Positions 1 through 64,000 of a stretch of DNA of 64,000 bases are shown piece after piece (positions within the stretch are counted from its first letter, which is position 1; every line of letters starts with the position of its first letter). Source of the stretch: a virus. The notes beneath the pieces are model-generated. The model ran no database searches, was not told the DNA's origin, and saw only the letters and a program-made list of their open reading frames with translations. The stretch lies in the IMG/VR virus record IMGVR_UViG_3300012153_000001, positions 1,190 through 65,189 of that record. One strand, given 5' to 3'. The position numbers and the translations under genes are program-made.

Positions 1-1
1 T

Positions 2-412
2 GATGACGATCATTTCATTCCGATAGCAACCGGACACTGTGGGACGTATCTCGGTAACATGCGTCCGTTAGCTTCGTGGTTGAACGGAAATAAGAACGCG
101 GCAAACCCTTTCGAATGGTTCGAAGCGAACAGGCAACGCTTTGACCTCGATCCAACACGCTTCGATGCGCTAGTTTGGCGACTGGCGTCACAGAACGGAT
201 TGACTCCGGGAGAGTTTCGCAGTTTCACGTATTGGTGCTTCGATAATCCGCGTACTGTCGAACAGATTGCGGAGGATAACGCGCGTTACGGATACAAAAA
301 GTCGTCGCTCGAAATATGGCGCGAACAAACGAGATTACCGTTTCCTATCGCTGTGGACTTCGGAGATACAGCGCTTAACAACGATATTAAGCGAGAGGGG
401 GACGTGGCATAA
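2..412 (+). CDS. hypothetical protein (5' end probably off-window)
   Basis: The frame is open from the window edge to TAA 410-412. The first ATG (59) has no SD. The stop overlaps the next start (TAATG). No motif recognised. Confidence 0.45.
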   Translation, partial: DDDHFIPIATGHCGTYLGNMRPLASWLNGNKNAANPFEWFEANRQRFDLDPTRFDALVWRLASQNGLTPGEFRSFTYWCFDNPRTVEQIAEDNARYGYKKSSLEIWREQTRLPFPIAVDFGDTALNNDIKREGDVA

Positions 413-8491: not shown

Positions 8492-8743
8492 TTAATCGCC
8501 TGCAGCCTCTTCGGGAGATCGCGCAACTCTCTTCATTTCGTACAGCTCATATGGGGAATCAAGGTTAAGTGCTTCCGCTATGGTGCGTAGGGTTCCCAGA
8601 CCCATTACACCAACGATGTGCTGACGATTAATATAGTTGTTGATCTGTTGCTTACTTATACCAGTAAGCTCAGCCAACTTGACTTGCGTCATCCTTTTGG
8701 ATTTAAGTATCTCCCGAAGTCGGCACTTACCGACTTCATACAT
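8492..8743 (-). CDS. XRE-family HTH transcriptional regulator
   Basis: ATG at 8743 follows SD GGAGGG. MTQVKLAELTGISKQQINNYINRQ is a classic Cro/CI-type HTH. Confidence 0.8.
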   Translation of the reverse strand: MYEVGKCRLREILKSKRMTQVKLAELTGISKQQINNYINRQHIVGVMGLGTLRTIAEALNLDSPYELYEMKRVARSPEEAAGD

Positions 8744-8785
8744 AAAACCCTCCAACAACAAGATTAAAAAAAAGATTTCAGAACG

Positions 8786-8827
8786 ATGTCCCAATATCAA
8801 AGATTCGTGTCCTTATATACTATGTAA
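8786..8827 (+). promoter_or_regulatory. 42-bp conserved promoter/operator-like element, copy 1
   Basis: ATGTCCCAAT-N7-ATTCGTGTCCTTATATACTATGTAA. It has the same architecture as 23591-23632 (34/42 identical). Confidence 0.6.
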
Positions 8828-11846: not shown

Positions 11847-11920
11847 CGTAAGTAAACGGAGCAAGCGTAGTATTGGGCGGAGGTCCCAACGGACAGCCCA
11901 CGAAAAGGGGAAACTCATTA

Positions 11921-13372
11921 ATGGCGAAACTTAACGTGGTAATTCCGGCAGTAGAGGTAACGGTGGATGGCGTGACTTATCGCAAGGTTGACCGCAAGGC
12001 GCAAGCGGGTGATATCGTTAAGGCGCTAAATAATGGTGACGACATCGATATGGGCGCATTCTACGCGGTGTACGTAAGCTCAGACCGTGAACTCGTGTTT
12101 GCGGATGATAACGGTGATGAGAGAGCGTATCAACTCAGAGAGAACTCGGATAAGTACGAAGTCTACGCGCCAATCTCCGAACCAGCCGCGGACACTATCA
12201 CGTTCGAAGGCGCAACATGGCGCAAAGTCGACCGCGATGTCCGCGAAGGCGATGCGATTAAGTTTACGGGTAAGGGACGCCGCAGCTACTTGACTGGTGC
12301 GGAGCTGTACGTTGTTGACCGCGTAGATTCGTGCGACGATCCGCAAATTACGGATGACGACGGAGATGATTACGACGCGGGCAGCGCTGATTACGAAGTC
12401 TACGAGAAGGTTGCGGAAGAGAAGACGCAAGTCACTACACCTCAGTATCGCGAGGTTAAGCGGAAAGCTGACGTAGGTGAGCGGATTAAGATCGTCGATA
12501 GGCTCGTATGGGAGACACGTTATGCGAACGGAGATACCTTCGTTGTAGCAGAGGACGCGGCTGGTGGTGACGTCGTTATTAGAACGGAGAATTTCCCGAG
12601 AGTATGCGTAGTTTATTCCGAATACGTCGTACTCGAACCGGTAACCGCGGAGCCTGCGAAGAAAGCGGAGCCAGAACGCCTGGCCGTCGGAGATTATGCG
12701 CGGGTTGTTGACGGAGAGAAAATAAACTCGGGAGCTCGCGTTGGAGACATCGTTGAGATACTCGTAGATGATAAGAGCACGGTGCCGTATAAAGTACGTA
12801 CAATTAGCGGCTATAGGGTCGGAGACGAAAACTGGGCGCTTCCTTCCGCATTTGTCCGCGCAACAGACGAAGAGGTGGCGGCCGCTAAAGATCCGCGCAG
12901 TAAATTCGAGATCGGAGACTACGTAAAGGTTGCGGTCGAATACTGCGAGCATAAGGTAGGCGACGTATTGAAGATTACGAACACAGCCAGCAGACACGAT
13001 TTCTACGTAACTAACGTGGCTACTAATCGTCTTGGGTGCATCGACGCAGACAAACTCGTTAAACTCACCGCAGCCGAAATCGCGGAGATCGAACGCAAGC
13101 AAGCGGAAGAAGCCGCTAAACGCGCTGAGGAAGCCCGCTGGAACGCGATCGGCCGTAAGGTGAACGAGTATAAACGCGGAGATTTGGTAAAGGTACTCGG
13201 AACTCTCGGCGGAGAAACCGAAGTAGGCGACATCGTGGAGGTATACGAAGGAGACGGAACTGACTCACCGATGATTTACGGTAATGATGGTTCAACATAC
13301 TACGCCACGGTTGAGCTAATCGTTCCGGTAGAGCAACGTTTCGACCGCGTAGAGGAGGTGGACGCCGCATAA
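11921..13372 (+). CDS. repeat protein, paralog family member P1
   Basis: SD AAAGGGGA lies before ATG 11921. Three units of type (Y/W)R(K/E)V(D/K)RKAxxG(D/E)xIK...YEVY/YVVLEP, followed by three xGDxVKV-type units. Confidence 0.6.
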   Translation: MAKLNVVIPAVEVTVDGVTYRKVDRKAQAGDIVKALNNGDDIDMGAFYAVYVSSDRELVFADDNGDERAYQLRENSDKYEVYAPISEPAADTITFEGATWRKVDRDVREGDAIKFTGKGRRSYLTGAELYVVDRVDSCDDPQITDDDGDDYDAGSADYEVYEKVAEEKTQVTTPQYREVKRKADVGERIKIVDRLVWETRYANGDTFVVAEDAAGGDVVIRTENFPRVCVVYSEYVVLEPVTAEPAKKAEPERLAVGDYARVVDGEKINSGARVGDIVEILVDDKSTVPYKVRTISGYRVGDENWALPSAFVRATDEEVAAAKDPRSKFEIGDYVKVAVEYCEHKVGDVLKITNTASRHDFYVTNVATNRLGCIDADKLVKLTAAEIAEIERKQAEEAAKRAEEARWNAIGRKVNEYKRGDLVKVLGTLGGETEVGDIVEVYEGDGTDSPMIYGNDGSTYYATVELIVPVEQRFDRVEEVDAA

Positions 13373-23590: not shown

Positions 23591-23632
23591 ATGTCCCAAT
23601 CTGCTCAATTCGTGTCCTTATATAGTATGTAA
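23591..23632 (+). promoter_or_regulatory. 42-bp conserved promoter/operator-like element, copy 2
   Basis: ATGTCCCAAT-N7-ATTCGTGTCCTTATATAGTATGTAA. Block spacing is identical to 8786-8827. Confidence 0.6.
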
Positions 23633-23668: not shown

Positions 23669-24547
23669 ATGTCAAACGTTAATCAAACGTATCGAGAAGT
23701 CCAACGCAAAGCCAACGCAGGTGAGCGCATCAAGATCGTAGCCGCCGCGGTCACTGGCGGTAGTTACCACAACGGTGACGAGCTCGTAGTTAGTGCCGTC
23801 CAGCCGTCTGGAGTACTCGCGACACTTGCGGACGGATATCGCGCAGGTATCTGGCACCGCGAATACGTAGTCCTCGAACCTATCGTAGCTCCCGCGCCAT
23901 CAAACGTTAACCTCCCGGACCTCTTCGCACAATTCATCCGGGACAATGCGCCGGCCGTACGCAGCTACTTGGCGGAGGTTGATCCGGTTGATAGCGCGGA
24001 GATCAACGAACCGGCCCCGCTGATACGCGCCAAGGTTATCGAAATGGCTCGCGAAAGGGTTACGGAGTTGGAGCGGCTCGGTTCTGATCCTAACGCGGAA
24101 TTAGCGCAAGGTCCGTTCAAAACGAAGTTCTATAACGTAGAATTTCACGTTAACCGCGATAAACGGACAGTTACCGCATTAGTGCGTATGGGGCGGAGAC
24201 GGAGCGGAGATAAACCAGCCGCAGTAGGCATCGCTAAGGCCGCGCCCGACGACGTATTTAACGCAGACATCGGCAAGGCAATCGCGGCTGAACGAGCGCT
24301 CGGTCTGACGCTGACGGATGCGTTTGTGAATGCGCCGAAGCCGGAGAAGGCGGTACCTGGCGTCGTTATCCGTAAGATAAACGGAGCCCATATCGGTACA
24401 ACTCGCGTCATTGAACGGACAATATTGGACGGTACTAGATACGAATTTACCAACGGGTATAACTCGGAGATTCGTAACTGCGCGATTATCGACGACACCG
24501 ACGCAGATTACACGGAGTCGGCCGCAAAGGACGGTGAAGCCGCGTGA
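23669..24547 (+). CDS. repeat protein, paralog family member P2
   Basis: N-terminal unit YREVQRKANAGERIKIV...REYVVLEP. The C-terminal domain VEFHVNRDKRTVTALVR...APDDVFNADIGKAIAAERAL is shared with P3. Confidence 0.6.
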   Translation: MSNVNQTYREVQRKANAGERIKIVAAAVTGGSYHNGDELVVSAVQPSGVLATLADGYRAGIWHREYVVLEPIVAPAPSNVNLPDLFAQFIRDNAPAVRSYLAEVDPVDSAEINEPAPLIRAKVIEMARERVTELERLGSDPNAELAQGPFKTKFYNVEFHVNRDKRTVTALVRMGRRRSGDKPAAVGIAKAAPDDVFNADIGKAIAAERALGLTLTDAFVNAPKPEKAVPGVVIRKINGAHIGTTRVIERTILDGTRYEFTNGYNSEIRNCAIIDDTDADYTESAAKDGEAA

Positions 24548-28016: not shown

Positions 28017-29255
28017 ATGAACGCAAACATTACCGTATTGAAAGACGAAAGCCTCGGCGGAGTTGAGCGCGAGTACCACGAGGTTAAGCGGAAGGCGAGC
28101 GTTGGTGAACGTATTAAGATCGTTGACGCCTCTTCATTCAGCGATTATGGAAACGGAGATACGTTTATCGTGGAACGCGATGACTGTGACGGGGATATTT
28201 TCATTACGGATAATGTCGGAGATGAGGAGGGTGTGTTTGATTACGAATACGTAACGCTCGAACCGTCCGATATCGTCCGCATCAACTCCGCCCGCTTCCG
28301 CATGGTCGATCGGAAAGCCGCGGTGGGCGAGCGCGTGATTATCGTAAATACTGTCGATTTAAACGGGGATGGCTACGAGAATGGTAATGTATTTGACGTA
28401 ACGGAACTTTGGGAAGCGGGAGTTGACGTTGATCACAGCGTAACGCTCTATCATCGAGAATACCACGTACTCGAACCAGTAAAAAGCACGCCAATCTCCG
28501 AACCTCTCTCCGCCAAGCCCGCGCCTGACCAAGCCGCCGAAATCATCGCGAAGTTATCGACGCGAGTAACTGCGCTTGAGGAACGTGTGGCGGCGTTGGA
28601 AACTGCGCCTATTAACCCGCGCTTATCTGACGTAGGAGTTAGAGCGCAGGAAGCTACGGACGCATTCGCTAGAGCTACGAAAAGGACATCCGCCACAGTA
28701 GCGGAAGTTACCGCTAACCTGGCGCAACGGGCGAAGGAAGCGCGCCAGAGAAAGCGCGATGACATCGTTAAGCGTGCGAAGGAGGACTTACACGCGCTGT
28801 CTATCGAAACTGGAAATTACGTTGTTAAGGATTCGCCCACATGTCGAGGTAATATATGTGAGGTGGAGTTCATTGTCAACCGAGATAAGCGTAAAGTTAC
28901 CGCTATCCTGCGCGGAGTAAACTCTCGAAAAGTACGCGCCGTTGGTCGGGCGGTCTGCAATCCGGATGACGTGTTTAACGTACATCTAGGGCGCGCAATT
29001 TCGCTAAGAAAAGCGCTAAAACAACCGATTCCGGAGGAGTACGTTAACGCGCCGCAGCCTACGGAGGTTCGCGTTGGGGATGTCGTTAAGTGGACGTATA
29101 AATATGGCGGGGAGATTACGGAGGTTGTAACGATTACACGTATTGACGGTGATCAATACCGATTCTCAGACGGGTGCTGGGACGATAGAGATACGCTAAC
29201 TGTGCTCGACGACTCCCGTACAGACAGCGCAGAGCCGCGGAAGGAGGTGGCGTAA
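28017..29255 (+). CDS. repeat protein, paralog family member P3
   Basis: Two units (YHEVKRKASVGERIKIV...YEYVTLEP and FRMVDRKAAVGERVIIV...REYHVLEP), a coiled coil, then the C-terminal domain VEFIVNRDKRKVTAILRG...NPDDVFNVHLGRAISLRKAL. Confidence 0.6.
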   Translation: MNANITVLKDESLGGVEREYHEVKRKASVGERIKIVDASSFSDYGNGDTFIVERDDCDGDIFITDNVGDEEGVFDYEYVTLEPSDIVRINSARFRMVDRKAAVGERVIIVNTVDLNGDGYENGNVFDVTELWEAGVDVDHSVTLYHREYHVLEPVKSTPISEPLSAKPAPDQAAEIIAKLSTRVTALEERVAALETAPINPRLSDVGVRAQEATDAFARATKRTSATVAEVTANLAQRAKEARQRKRDDIVKRAKEDLHALSIETGNYVVKDSPTCRGNICEVEFIVNRDKRKVTAILRGVNSRKVRAVGRAVCNPDDVFNVHLGRAISLRKALKQPIPEEYVNAPQPTEVRVGDVVKWTYKYGGEITEVVTITRIDGDQYRFSDGCWDDRDTLTVLDDSRTDSAEPRKEVA

Positions 29256-62124: not shown

Positions 62125-62523
62125 TTATAGACCGCGCATCCGCTCCGGCAACGTCGGGTCCACGTACTTATCCGTATTCAATCCGAGATACTTCCGCATA
62201 ACCACGCTCGCCTGCGGAGCCATTGATGACCAACGCAGCCTCATCTCCGATTCATATCCGCGACATTTATAGCGCGCCACTACACCGTCATTATCCGCTA
62301 CCTCTTCGTAGACTTTAATCCCGCGCGTCCGAAACTGTTTACGGATCTCGTATATGTCTGCGGTAATCTTCCGCTGGGCCTCCGCAATGACGTCGACGTA
62401 TGGGCCCGGCGTCTTTAGCGTCGTATTGATAAGCGCGATGTCCCGTTCGAATGCGGTGAGGACGCGGGGCAGTATAATATGCGATTTGATGAGTGCGCGG
62501 TCTTCCTGCGTAATGTCGATCAT
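62125..62523 (-). CDS. hypothetical protein
   Basis: Internal ATG 62523 was chosen because the N-terminal 38 codons of the track ORF look non-protein-like. The SD is weak. Confidence 0.4.
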   Translation of the reverse strand: MIDITQEDRALIKSHIILPRVLTAFERDIALINTTLKTPGPYVDVIAEAQRKITADIYEIRKQFRTRGIKVYEEVADNDGVVARYKCRGYESEMRLRWSSMAPQASVVMRKYLGLNTDKYVDPTLPERMRGL

Positions 62524-62682: not shown

Positions 62683-63714
62683 TTACTTAAACATTTTTCT
62701 GCCGCGTTTCTTCTCGTTACCTTTATCGATCAAACTCGAGATAGGACTCGCCTTGTCGTGCTGCTCGCTCAGATCCGTTCCTGTAAATTTAGCATATACC
62801 TGTGTCATATTAAGCGAGGTGTGACCTAAAATGCGCGCCAGACTCAACGCATCGCCGTTTTGGCGTAGAAACTTAACCGCAAAGTAATGCCGGAAAGTAT
62901 GCGGGGATACTCTCGGCCCTGTTACGCCAACGCGCTTTGCGTAAAGTTTTAGCATCTTCGCGAAGGTATCTCCGAAATAACGTTCGCCGAACTGAGTGAG
63001 CCATAGCGGGTCGTCTTCGCTTACGTCCATATACGAAATTAAGTTCTCCAGCTCACGGGAAGTAAGCGGGGAAATAGGGACCACGCGAGTCATATTCGTT
63101 TTTGAGGTCTCTGCGCGGACTATGATTTGTCGTGTCTTAAAGTTAACGTCTGACACGCGCAGACTCGTCAGTTCTTTAATACGCAGGCCAGTGTCACAGA
63201 GGAGAAGCATCATACAATAATCGCGTCGGCCCGTATAGACCCTTCGGTTAGGCGCGCCGAGGAGCTTGACCACTTCTTCATCCGTGAAAATGTCGAAGGT
63301 ATCTTTTGCCTCCGCTTGGTATTTTACAGCCTCCATCGGATTGTACGATATGACTCTTTCTTCTATTAAGTAATTAAAGAAGATGCGCATATTACGTATG
63401 ACGTTGTTTATCGTCCGAGGCGAGAGTCCTTTTGCACCGTTTGGACTCGTCGGATGATCGTCCCATCGTACCTTCCCGAACGAAAGATATTCGATGTACT
63501 CACGTAGGATCTCCGTATTAATTTCGTCATACTCGCGCTCATTATACCACTTCTCGAATTGATTCAAGACCTGCGCATATGCGCTAATTGTTTTTACTGC
63601 GCGGCGTTCTCTGCGCTTAGAATCGAGAAACTGCGCGATGCGATCTCCTAACGCAAGCTTAAGCGGCTTACCCTCTTTTGATACAAACGTAAACTTCGGT
63701 GTTTTCTGCGCCAT
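62683..63714 (-). CDS. int: tyrosine recombinase / phage integrase
   Basis: SD AAAGGAGG upstream. N-terminal SAM-like domain. Catalytic region: TGLRIKEL, HTFRHYFA, LGHTSLNMTQVY. Confidence 0.9.
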   Translation of the reverse strand: MAQKTPKFTFVSKEGKPLKLALGDRIAQFLDSKRRERRAVKTISAYAQVLNQFEKWYNEREYDEINTEILREYIEYLSFGKVRWDDHPTSPNGAKGLSPRTINNVIRNMRIFFNYLIEERVISYNPMEAVKYQAEAKDTFDIFTDEEVVKLLGAPNRRVYTGRRDYCMMLLLCDTGLRIKELTSLRVSDVNFKTRQIIVRAETSKTNMTRVVPISPLTSRELENLISYMDVSEDDPLWLTQFGERYFGDTFAKMLKLYAKRVGVTGPRVSPHTFRHYFAVKFLRQNGDALSLARILGHTSLNMTQVYAKFTGTDLSEQHDKASPISSLIDKGNEKKRGRKMFK

Positions 63715-63730
63715 TTATCAGCGCCTCCTT

Positions 63731-63784
63731 TAGCGATAAATTTACGCTAAATGTTCCGATAAAGCTGCGAAATCTTTATCGCTA
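63731..63784. repeat. 10-bp perfect inverted repeat upstream of int
   Basis: TAGCGATAAA (63731-63740) pairs with TTTATCGCTA (63775-63784). ACGCTAAA direct repeats also occur at 63744-63751 and 63812-63819. Confidence 0.75.
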
Positions 63785-63843
63785 TAGCGACAGACTATTT
63801 CGCGTATGTTCACGCTAAACTTTGCGTCACGTTGACCGTTTAA

Positions 63844-64000
63844 ACTAGTGGATTTTTGTATCCAGCGATTGCCGAAAAGTTCAAAACAACGCCATCTCGC
63901 GTCGAACGTGCCATCCGTCATGCCATTGAAGTGGCTTGGACACGTGGCAACATCGACAGCATCAGCCACCTGTTTGGCTATACGATTAACATCAGCAAAT
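63844..64000 (+). pseudogene. spo0A: 5'-truncated spo0A (C-terminal DNA-binding domain fragment, continues off-window)
   Basis: Translation reads [52 protein letters not shown], which contains the Spo0A signature [15 protein letters not shown]. The frame is closed by TAA 63841-63843, with no start codon or SD. Confidence 0.8.

Follow-up and report, generated by a model that had tools for sequence, protein, structure and literature searches.

A duplicated spo0A 3' end as the probable attachment site of a temperate phage of the Paenibacillaceae

Phage 21 and element e14 reportedly integrate into the 3' end of icd in E. coli (work attributed to Campbell and co-workers and to Hill et al.), and P4, P22, HP1, and islands are said to integrate at the 3' ends of tRNA and tmRNA genes, the subject of a survey by Williams in 2002. 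Listeria prophages of the A118/phi10403S type sit in comK ("active lysogeny"). The intervening elements of sporulation genes include skin in sigK, SPbeta in spsM, and yin in yabG (PMC5025042, PMC10747680). Here, we looked into a 64,000-nucleotide (nt) stretch of viral DNA (IMG/VR record IMGVR_UViG_3300012153_000001, positions 1,190 to 65,189; referred to below as the window), which covers nearly all of the ~65.07-kb genome of a temperate Paenibacillaceae phage of the myovirus type. At its right end, a tyrosine integrase gene (int) lies next to the 3' end of the sporulation gene spo0A (the tail). This tail is very probably a duplicated spo0A end within the phage attachment site, such that insertion into the 3' part of spo0A leaves the gene whole.

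The locus resembles phage 21 and e14 at icd in that the recombinase is a tyrosine integrase, the bacterial attachment site (attB) lies in the 3' end of a conserved protein gene, a phage-borne alternative gene end gives a full-length open reading frame (ORF), the displaced duplicate lies elsewhere, and the differences between copies are mostly synonymous. It differs from them in its target, spo0A in the Paenibacillaceae, in an integrase that is unrelated at the family level, and in a carried segment that varies from 18 to 71 codons among the spo0A elements, with tandem pile-up. As at tRNA and tmRNA sites, an identity block extends from the crossover as far as the gene's 3' end, the gene is restored, and a partial copy of the gene end is found at the far boundary; arrays in tandem and decayed remnants build up at the site, and a highly conserved target gives a broad choice of hosts. 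In contrast to those sites, spo0A encodes a protein, and its reading frame must be kept. Moreover, int in the window neighbors the displaced copy and points away from it, whereas a second integrase lineage, described below, has the tRNA-like order of gene and then int.

Like skin, SPbeta, and yin, the spo0A phage occupies a sporulation gene of an endospore-forming host, as a prophage or prophage-like element. However, those elements split the ORF without a duplicated end, skin and SPbeta use large serine recombinases, and the interrupted genes work only after timed excision in the mother cell, whereas the spo0A phage uses a tyrosine integrase and leaves the ORF whole, and spo0A acts at the start of sporulation in the predivisional cell. 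With neither a split ORF nor a serine recombinase among the genes called at its ends, the spo0A phage is not an intervening element of the skin/SPbeta type. It shares with A118/phi10403S the use of a developmental master-regulator gene as attB; comK is inactivated by insertion and restored by excision, whereas the evidence at spo0A points to no inactivation. What appears to be new is the target gene, and classical integration into a gene 3' end with a replacement end is known.

The first-pass annotation of the window, made from the sequence alone, knew of no described phage that targets spo0A, and our searches agreed with it: full-text literature searches turned up no publication describing phage attachment at spo0A, and no spo0A tail was found among the cultured phages in INPHARED, even with a 26-amino-acid query at E ≤ 10. 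Fourteen human-gut records named "Bacteriophage sp." with Spo0A_C matches were considered and rejected. Three of them were opened, and the two that were read by ORF (MT835504.1 and MT835737.1, "UNVERIFIED Bacteriophage sp.") carry full-length chromosomal spo0A, preceded by spoIVB and followed by glycogen synthase or L31/ABC transporter genes. Judged by this gene order, these two records are probably bacterial DNA deposited as phage, and the other 12 gut records probably are too.

Integrase and spo0A tail at the right end of the window

The right end of the window contains the features listed here, where L numbers denote loci in other contigs and genomes.

62683-63714, minus strand: tyrosine integrase of 343 amino acids (Pfam Phage_integrase, E = 2.6e-31, and SAM-like N-terminal domains)
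63715-63855, no strand assigned: P arm of the attachment site, the spacer between int and the tail (repeats; kept beside int in L003, L006, L007, L008, and L011)
63732, and inverted at 63775: AGCGATAAA, candidate arm-type sites in the P arm
63741: TTTACGCTAAAT, candidate arm-type site in the P arm
63756: CCGATAA, candidate arm-type site in the P arm
63809: TTCACGCTAAAC, candidate arm-type site in the P arm
63841-63843, plus strand: TAA that closes the tail frame on the int side (read from the sequence)
63856-64000, plus strand: spo0A tail, the direct-repeat/identity segment of the attachment site (Spo0A_C match; 0/72 amino acid differences from hosts)

An alignment of the integrase with the XerC-like structure 4a8e and with XerD 1a0p showed that all six catalytic positions are kept: R (GLRIKEL), K (SKTNMTRVVP), HxxR (HTFRHYF), H, and Y (LGHTSLNMTQVY). 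The gene starts 130 bp to the left of the spo0A piece at 63844 to 64000, in line with the earlier estimate of about 130 bp. The protein is recorded in two contigs, Logan SRR6448731_5202 (65,095 bp) and ENA ERZ27241877 k141_135549 (65,204 bp); its closest counterpart in the INPHARED phage collection is 35% identical, and no close cultured-phage match was found there. There was no serine recombinase among the called genes at either end of the genome; its middle part was not searched one family at a time.

Positions 63844 to 63999 on the plus strand had been read as a 52-amino-acid piece of the Spo0A C-terminal domain closed by the TAA, and we reproduced both the translation and the stop codon exactly. 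The piece matched Pfam Spo0A_C (PF08769) with an E value of 7.5e-19 over profile positions 41 to 86 of 104, but the domain assignment does not extend to its first four codons: these encode TSGF, which is foreign to spo0A (hosts have ITKT there), and true spo0A homology starts at 63856 with a Leu codon, TTG. From LYPAIAEKF on, the protein is 100% identical to Spo0A of Paenibacillus paridis and to two other Paenibacillus-type spo0A products. A comparison of the tail with three host spo0A genes gave no amino acid differences over 72 positions and 25 to 39 differences over 216 nt, almost all of them in third positions; this protein identity with Spo0A is far beyond chance.

The window holds the first 145 nt of a 216-nt copy of the spo0A 3' end (71 codons and the stop). 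Downstream of the window, the sequence continued as spo0A, with the tail going on for 73 to 74 nt to the natural spo0A stop (TGA) and AAG. The complete tail covers positions 41 to 104 of the 104-position Spo0A_C profile, with ~40% of the domain absent. The first-pass annotation had stated that the frame has neither a start codon nor a Shine-Dalgarno sequence. Inspection agreed that no Shine-Dalgarno sequence precedes the TTG at 63856, but this TTG is a formal in-frame start codon; a scan found no promoter-like site ahead of the tail. Similarly, the statement that about the first 190 codons are missing is right for the int-side copy, although, this copy being the spare one, the missing part has not been displaced. 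No second direct-repeat copy of the tail was found inside the window; the other copy lies ~1.0 to 1.2 kb to the left of position 1.

The tail is flanked on the int side by the P arm, which must also hold the putative promoter of int, and on the other side, at the left end of the phage genome, by the P' arm. The P' arm contains the motifs GCGTAAACTTATCG (twice), CGATAAAC, and CGGTAAAC, and repeated motifs of the AGCGTAAA/CGATAAA type occur on both arms and are kept in relatives. The pattern GCG[AT][AT]AA[ACT] occurs 5 times in the 560-nt attachment region, compared with 0.59 occurrences expected from its genome-wide density (a roughly tenfold enrichment). These repeated motifs are candidate arm-type sites for the integrase. 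In addition, the P' arm carries an intrinsic terminator on the spo0A strand, a 12-bp stem followed by a T-run, ~200 nt past the spo0A stop (positions 409 to 436 of L002, the left end of the ENA contig).

Junctions in metagenome assemblies and isolate genomes

The junctions of the window phage were read from contig ends in the Logan, ENA, IMG/VR, and JGI metagenome assemblies. The Logan contig SRR6448731_5202 contains the window by coordinates and extends just 73 nt further. These 73 nt finish spo0A to its natural stop with a 1-nt deletion (AAATGAAACC in place of AAATCGAAACC), which places a TGA right after "...TINISK," one codon past the window, whereas the ENA and IMG/VR assemblies are in frame at the deletion site (AAATCGAAACC). 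The two tail variants thus differ at the equivalent of position 64001 (L001 82-81, L016 ~124, L002 142) by a C versus a deleted C. The AAATCGAAACC variant is joined to the P' arm (ENA and IMG/VR); the AAATGAAACC variant is the one in Logan and is joined to a host flank in the JGI contig.

The ENA contig begins inside the tail at 63860, in frame, and continues past the stop into the P' arm, reaching window position 1 ~1.2 kb later with 0 mismatches over 493 nt. A second 3' copy and a duplicated core, which the first-pass annotation had suggested looking for beyond the ends of the element, were both found, the copy as this tail-P' junction and the core as a direct repeat in P. paridis (below). 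The right end of the ENA contig is at 63997, and its end overlap is 138 nt, not the k of 141. Its last 141-mer begins at 63857, one base past the start of spo0A homology, and its first 141-mer ends at 64000, one base ahead of the C/deleted-C site. The JGI contig Ga0153980_1000094 (L016, 53.5 kb) begins at 63878 and matches the window exactly for 123 nt up to 64000; beyond this point, it has the deleted-C variant, the stop, and then nonphage DNA. This flank starts with GATCAGG... (compare GATCGGG... in the host locus L015) and encodes an AraC/periplasmic-binding protein. The Logan and IMG/VR contigs both end at ...CCTGAAAG, the point of divergence between P' and the host flank. The end overlap is 127 nt in the IMG/VR contig 3300036816_000007 and 30 nt in Logan (a calculated value), which we take to be k − 1 for the k of 31 of that pipeline.

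The contig ends in the four assemblies are the forks expected of a repeat that is common to phage and host. Because they sit at such forks, the assembly graph would have two entries into the tail (the P arm and, by inference, the 5' part of host spo0A) and two exits from it (C to P' and deleted C to the host flank, B'). Such a graph is what a lysogen would give, with a left junction (attL) made of the spo0A 5' part, the in-frame tail, and P' and a right junction (attR) made of P, the frameshifted tail, and B'; free phage may also be present in the sample. The end overlaps had at first been taken for a simple circle, that is, the attachment site of free phage (attP), and this view was dropped since a lysogen with collapsed repeats fits equally well. 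The sampled molecules would accordingly be attR in a lysogen or attP in excised phage. As the P-tail and tail-P' junctions are both real, the element owns a copy of the tail.

Relatives of the integrase at 65 to 87% identity were present at eight loci in Paenibacillus and Cohnella genomes. In these isolate genomes, int and the tail lie within long contigs, with 10 kb on each side. All eight have a spo0A tail 100 to 300 nt upstream of int, on the opposite strand and ending at the spo0A stop, with lengths of 18, 20, 41, 45, 45, 45, 56, and 65 codons. The junctions and the eight relatives together agree with the original proposal that the integrase end abuts a 5'-truncated spo0A and that spo0A is the integration target.

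Four loci illustrate the states of the site. In P. paridis (L006), the order is recN, spoIVB, an intact 270-amino-acid spo0A, an element of ~4.7 kb, int, and the displaced tail, and attL and attR have a ~183-bp perfect direct repeat in common. L044 has an intact spo0A and then a P'-like arm. Paenibacillus sp. ACRRY (L003) carries what we refer to as the sister phage: its integrase is 87% identical to that of the window, its P and P' arms are homologous to those of the window phage, and P, tail, and P' are contiguous on an isolate contig that extends 10 kb to either side, with a tail of just 60 to 61 nt. By its sequence, this arrangement would clearly be either the attP form or an internal junction of a tandem lysogen. 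In L015, recN, spoIVB, and spo0A are uninterrupted and an EAL-domain gene comes next; this locus served for the comparison with an empty site that had been suggested earlier: the tail of the sister phage is identical to L015 over 60 to 61 nt through TGAAAG (3 nt past the stop), and the sequences on both sides differ. The matching block in the window phage is the last 60 to 61 nt of its tail. The identity block of attP and attB was therefore established on L003 and L015.

Frameshifts were seen on the int side, in the Logan/L016 copy and in L010, whereas the copy joined to P' encodes the end of Spo0A without error. Paenibacillus macquariensis (NZ_FTNK01000001) has a ~27-kb tandem array of three spo0A tails and two related int genes. 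The tails, one of which has a 1-nt insertion, are as follows.

9717-9851 of L005: P. macquariensis spo0A tail
9717-9852 of L010: P. macquariensis spo0A tail
15347-15511 of L010: P. macquariensis spo0A tail

Downstream of each tail come a conserved ...GGTAAGGGA... segment and GATAAAC motifs that resemble P' arms, and the array looks to be a pile-up of elements at the spo0A site. Mapping the crossover by polymorphism gave no position in these genomes, as the L006 repeats are identical and thus uninformative and the differences among the three P. macquariensis tails are scattered, with no mosaic pattern.

In IMG/VR, 34 stretches encode a given 10-residue Spo0A string, ~27 of which are tail fragments of 20 to 60 codons. 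Thirteen of the IMG/VR tail stretches adjoin a homologue of the window integrase, and some of these come from a distant lineage (~30% identity). At L022, L031, L035, L036, and L042, this second integrase lineage (~27 to 34% identical to that of the window) lies directly after the tail and is oriented like it; at L042 it follows a full spo0A gene. Two or more integrase lineages therefore target the spo0A 3' end.

As a separate observation, the "host" flanks past attR in P. paridis (L006, 9400-9700) and in P. luteus (L007, 9480-9800) themselves look like P' arms (TTTACGATTAAGGTAGCGTCA..TGTTCC.A.GAA), a similarity that suggests a possible older, decayed element at the same site.

Mechanism of integration and alternative explanations

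We propose that the tyrosine integrase recombines attP, which would contain the copy of the last 71 spo0A codons, with the 3' end of host spo0A. The attL junction would then consist of the host spo0A 5' part, the tail, and the P' arm, giving a full-length gene whose protein is unchanged. The phage would bring both the end of the gene and, ~200 nt further on, a terminator, which would end the rebuilt spo0A transcript. At attR, int and the P arm would be followed by the tail and the host downstream DNA, and this tail would be a spare without promoter or start, free to decay. Catalysis of this attP-by-attB recombination by the integrase is itself a prediction from the gene arrangement. What was found for such a mechanism, partly on relatives, comprises a tyrosine recombinase, a carried gene end, an attP/attB identity block, direct repeats, and an intact ORF.

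Strand exchange most likely takes place within the last ~60 nt of spo0A, since this is the sole part common to all relatives and is identical between L003 and L015. The crossover would lie inside the L003/L015 block because phage and host sequences diverge to its left and right. The window phage's additional ~155 nt of homology would then be dispensable baggage, which may stem either from an ancestral longer copy or from aberrant excision.

Several points weigh against this account. The only complete lysogen with both junctions, L006, is a 4.7-kb remnant and not a full prophage. For the window phage, the phasing of the left flank (P or host spo0A 5' part), the right flank (P' or B'), and the tail variant is deduced from contig ends, and the P-tail and tail-P' junctions, which would lie together on one molecule, were seen on separate contig ends. 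The 5' part of host spo0A joined to the exact tail was not recovered for the phage's own host, and this junction is deduced from the end of the ENA contig at 63997. Tail lengths vary from 18 to 71 codons among close relatives without an explanation, and the argument for arm-type sites is one of motif enrichment in candidate sequences. Finally, if the crossover were at the left end of the tail, the end of the gene would be phage derived and the frameshifted copy would be the displaced host end.

The first-pass annotation had left two readings side by side: a prophage that splits spo0A, whose lysogens would be sporulation-null or would regain spo0A by excision only (as in skin/SPbeta or the comK "active lysogeny"), and a spare 3' copy with spo0A rebuilt at the other junction. 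Taken alone, the window does show a 5'-truncated spo0A next to int, and prophage-like elements that divide sigK, spsM, and yabG are well known (PMC5025042, PMC10747680). A split gene is nonetheless highly improbable, given that the tail is also joined in frame to the other phage arm and is thus a duplicated end, that spo0A is intact at attL in L006, with the perfect repeat between attL and attR, and in L044, that the sister phage has the tail within attP, and that the recombinase is a tyrosine integrase and not a serine recombinase of the SpoIVCA/SprA type. These same loci, together with the in-frame tail-P' junction, favor the second reading. We conclude that spo0A is not split because the element brings its own gene end and uses a tyrosine integrase as recombinase, and because the copies on the int side are decaying pseudogenes. 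An assembly artifact, with host spo0A reads misjoined to the end of a phage contig, would account for the tail lying at the end of a contig in each of the four metagenome assemblies, the place most prone to chimeras. It is almost certainly not the explanation, as the P-tail junction is the same in three assemblers and at least two samples, polished isolate genomes have the same int-tail order inside long contigs (8/8), and the junctions in L003 flank a 60-nt tail, which we judged to be shorter than a typical sequencing read.

The tail could also be passive baggage, host DNA acquired when an excision went wrong, as in specialized transduction, with the true attachment core outside spo0A. The left boundary of the tail is indeed different in every lineage, and ~155 nt of it are absent from L003, which has the same arms, so that this part looks dispensable; yet the last 18 to 20 codons through the stop are kept in every relative, none of which is without a tail, and the 60- to 61-nt L003/L015 block lies wholly within the spo0A end plus 3 nt. 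Baggage from excision fits our proposed mechanism for the extra 155 nt only, and as an account of the whole tail we consider it very unlikely. It is extremely doubtful that the phage expresses the tail as a Spo0A_C-only peptide, a decoy or dominant-negative DNA binder that would steer sporulation. Phages do carry sporulation regulators, e.g., spo0E, abrB, and rap (10.1101/2021.07.15.452460), the TTG at 63856 is in frame, and the amino acid sequence is perfectly kept relative to host Spo0A. However, perfect coding is accounted for by a present or recent role as the end of the real gene, and a peptide is difficult to reconcile with the lack of a Shine-Dalgarno sequence (by inspection) and of a promoter-like site, with the missing ~40% of the domain, with tails of 18 to 71 codons in close relatives, and with the frameshifts in the Logan/L016 copy and in L010.

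Given a duplicated spo0A end that keeps the gene whole, the site might still couple the prophage to the sporulation decision or have an addiction-like effect; we consider this unlikely. Integration would swap the native 3' untranslated region (UTR) and terminator of spo0A for phage sequence, and the left-end operon of the phage, with its own repeated promoter-like element, would come to lie, in the same orientation, ~250 nt past spo0A. If transcription from the sporulation-induced spo0A promoters read through, or if the stability of the spo0A mRNA changed, prophage expression or induction could become tied to sporulation; the strong P' terminator argues against such coupling. For addiction, if the exchange took place to the left of the 1-nt deletion, excision would return the frameshifted tail to the host, and the cured cell would make a Spo0A without its last 22 residues. 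What speaks against this effect is the 60-nt block of identity in the sister phage.

These observations add spo0A to the conserved genes whose 3' ends are used for phage attachment and point to a recurrent hotspot in the Paenibacillaceae. "Truncated spo0A" pseudogenes beside integrases can be expected to recur in annotation, where the duplicated tail would be an exact marker of the prophage border, and lysogens should retain a normal Spo0A protein. The site also makes it possible to ask whether the swapped spo0A 3' UTR and terminator or the adjacent phage genes shift the timing of sporulation or induction. In addition, the integrase and its ~60-bp target could be a tool for site-specific integration in Paenibacillus.

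Gene content of the phage and other sequence features

The rest of the genome in the window is one-directional. Profile matches identified a DnaB helicase, a primase, and a CI-like repressor, and PHROG and profile searches placed a large terminase and a tail sheath among its products; a tape measure protein, baseplate proteins, and an amidase are encoded as well. Two further features relate to the lysogenic lifestyle and to the P' end.

8492-8800, minus strand: CI-like helix-turn-helix (HTH) repressor (PHROG transcriptional repressor/regulator families, E down to 6e-11; Pfam HTH_3/HTH_19)
1-412, plus strand: 3' part of a 345-amino-acid endonuclease VII-like gene (PHROG endonuclease VII, E = 1.9e-8; completed from the left end of the ENA contig, L002 1-1700)

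The CI-like repressor gene is divergent from the replication genes and represents the lysogeny control of the same element as int. The endonuclease VII-like gene is the first gene at the P' end and begins 366 nt past the stop of the tail.

Next to int, positions 62125 to 62523 on the minus strand encode a 132-amino-acid protein that matches Pfam YhjD/phrog_34234 (function unknown) with an E value of 4e-38. The gene occupies a place that might be expected for an excisionase or directionality factor, and nothing links YhjD to such a role.

The sequence ATGTCCCAA-N9/10-TTCGTGTCCTTATATA occurs in three plus-strand copies (L002 445-490, window 8786-8827, and window 23591-23632), each directly upstream of a block of plus-strand genes. 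The first copy lies past the P' terminator, the second between the CI-like repressor and the next operon, and the third before the ORF at 23669. From their positions, these copies look like candidate phage promoters or operators that may be jointly controlled.

A 55-nt segment recurs at 12444-12498, 23688-23742, 28072-28126, and 28294-28348, with copies that are 62 to 82% identical. The copies lie within the 5' parts of three long ORFs (11873-13372, 23669-24547, and 28017-29255), which suggests that three phage proteins may have paralogous N-terminal domains.

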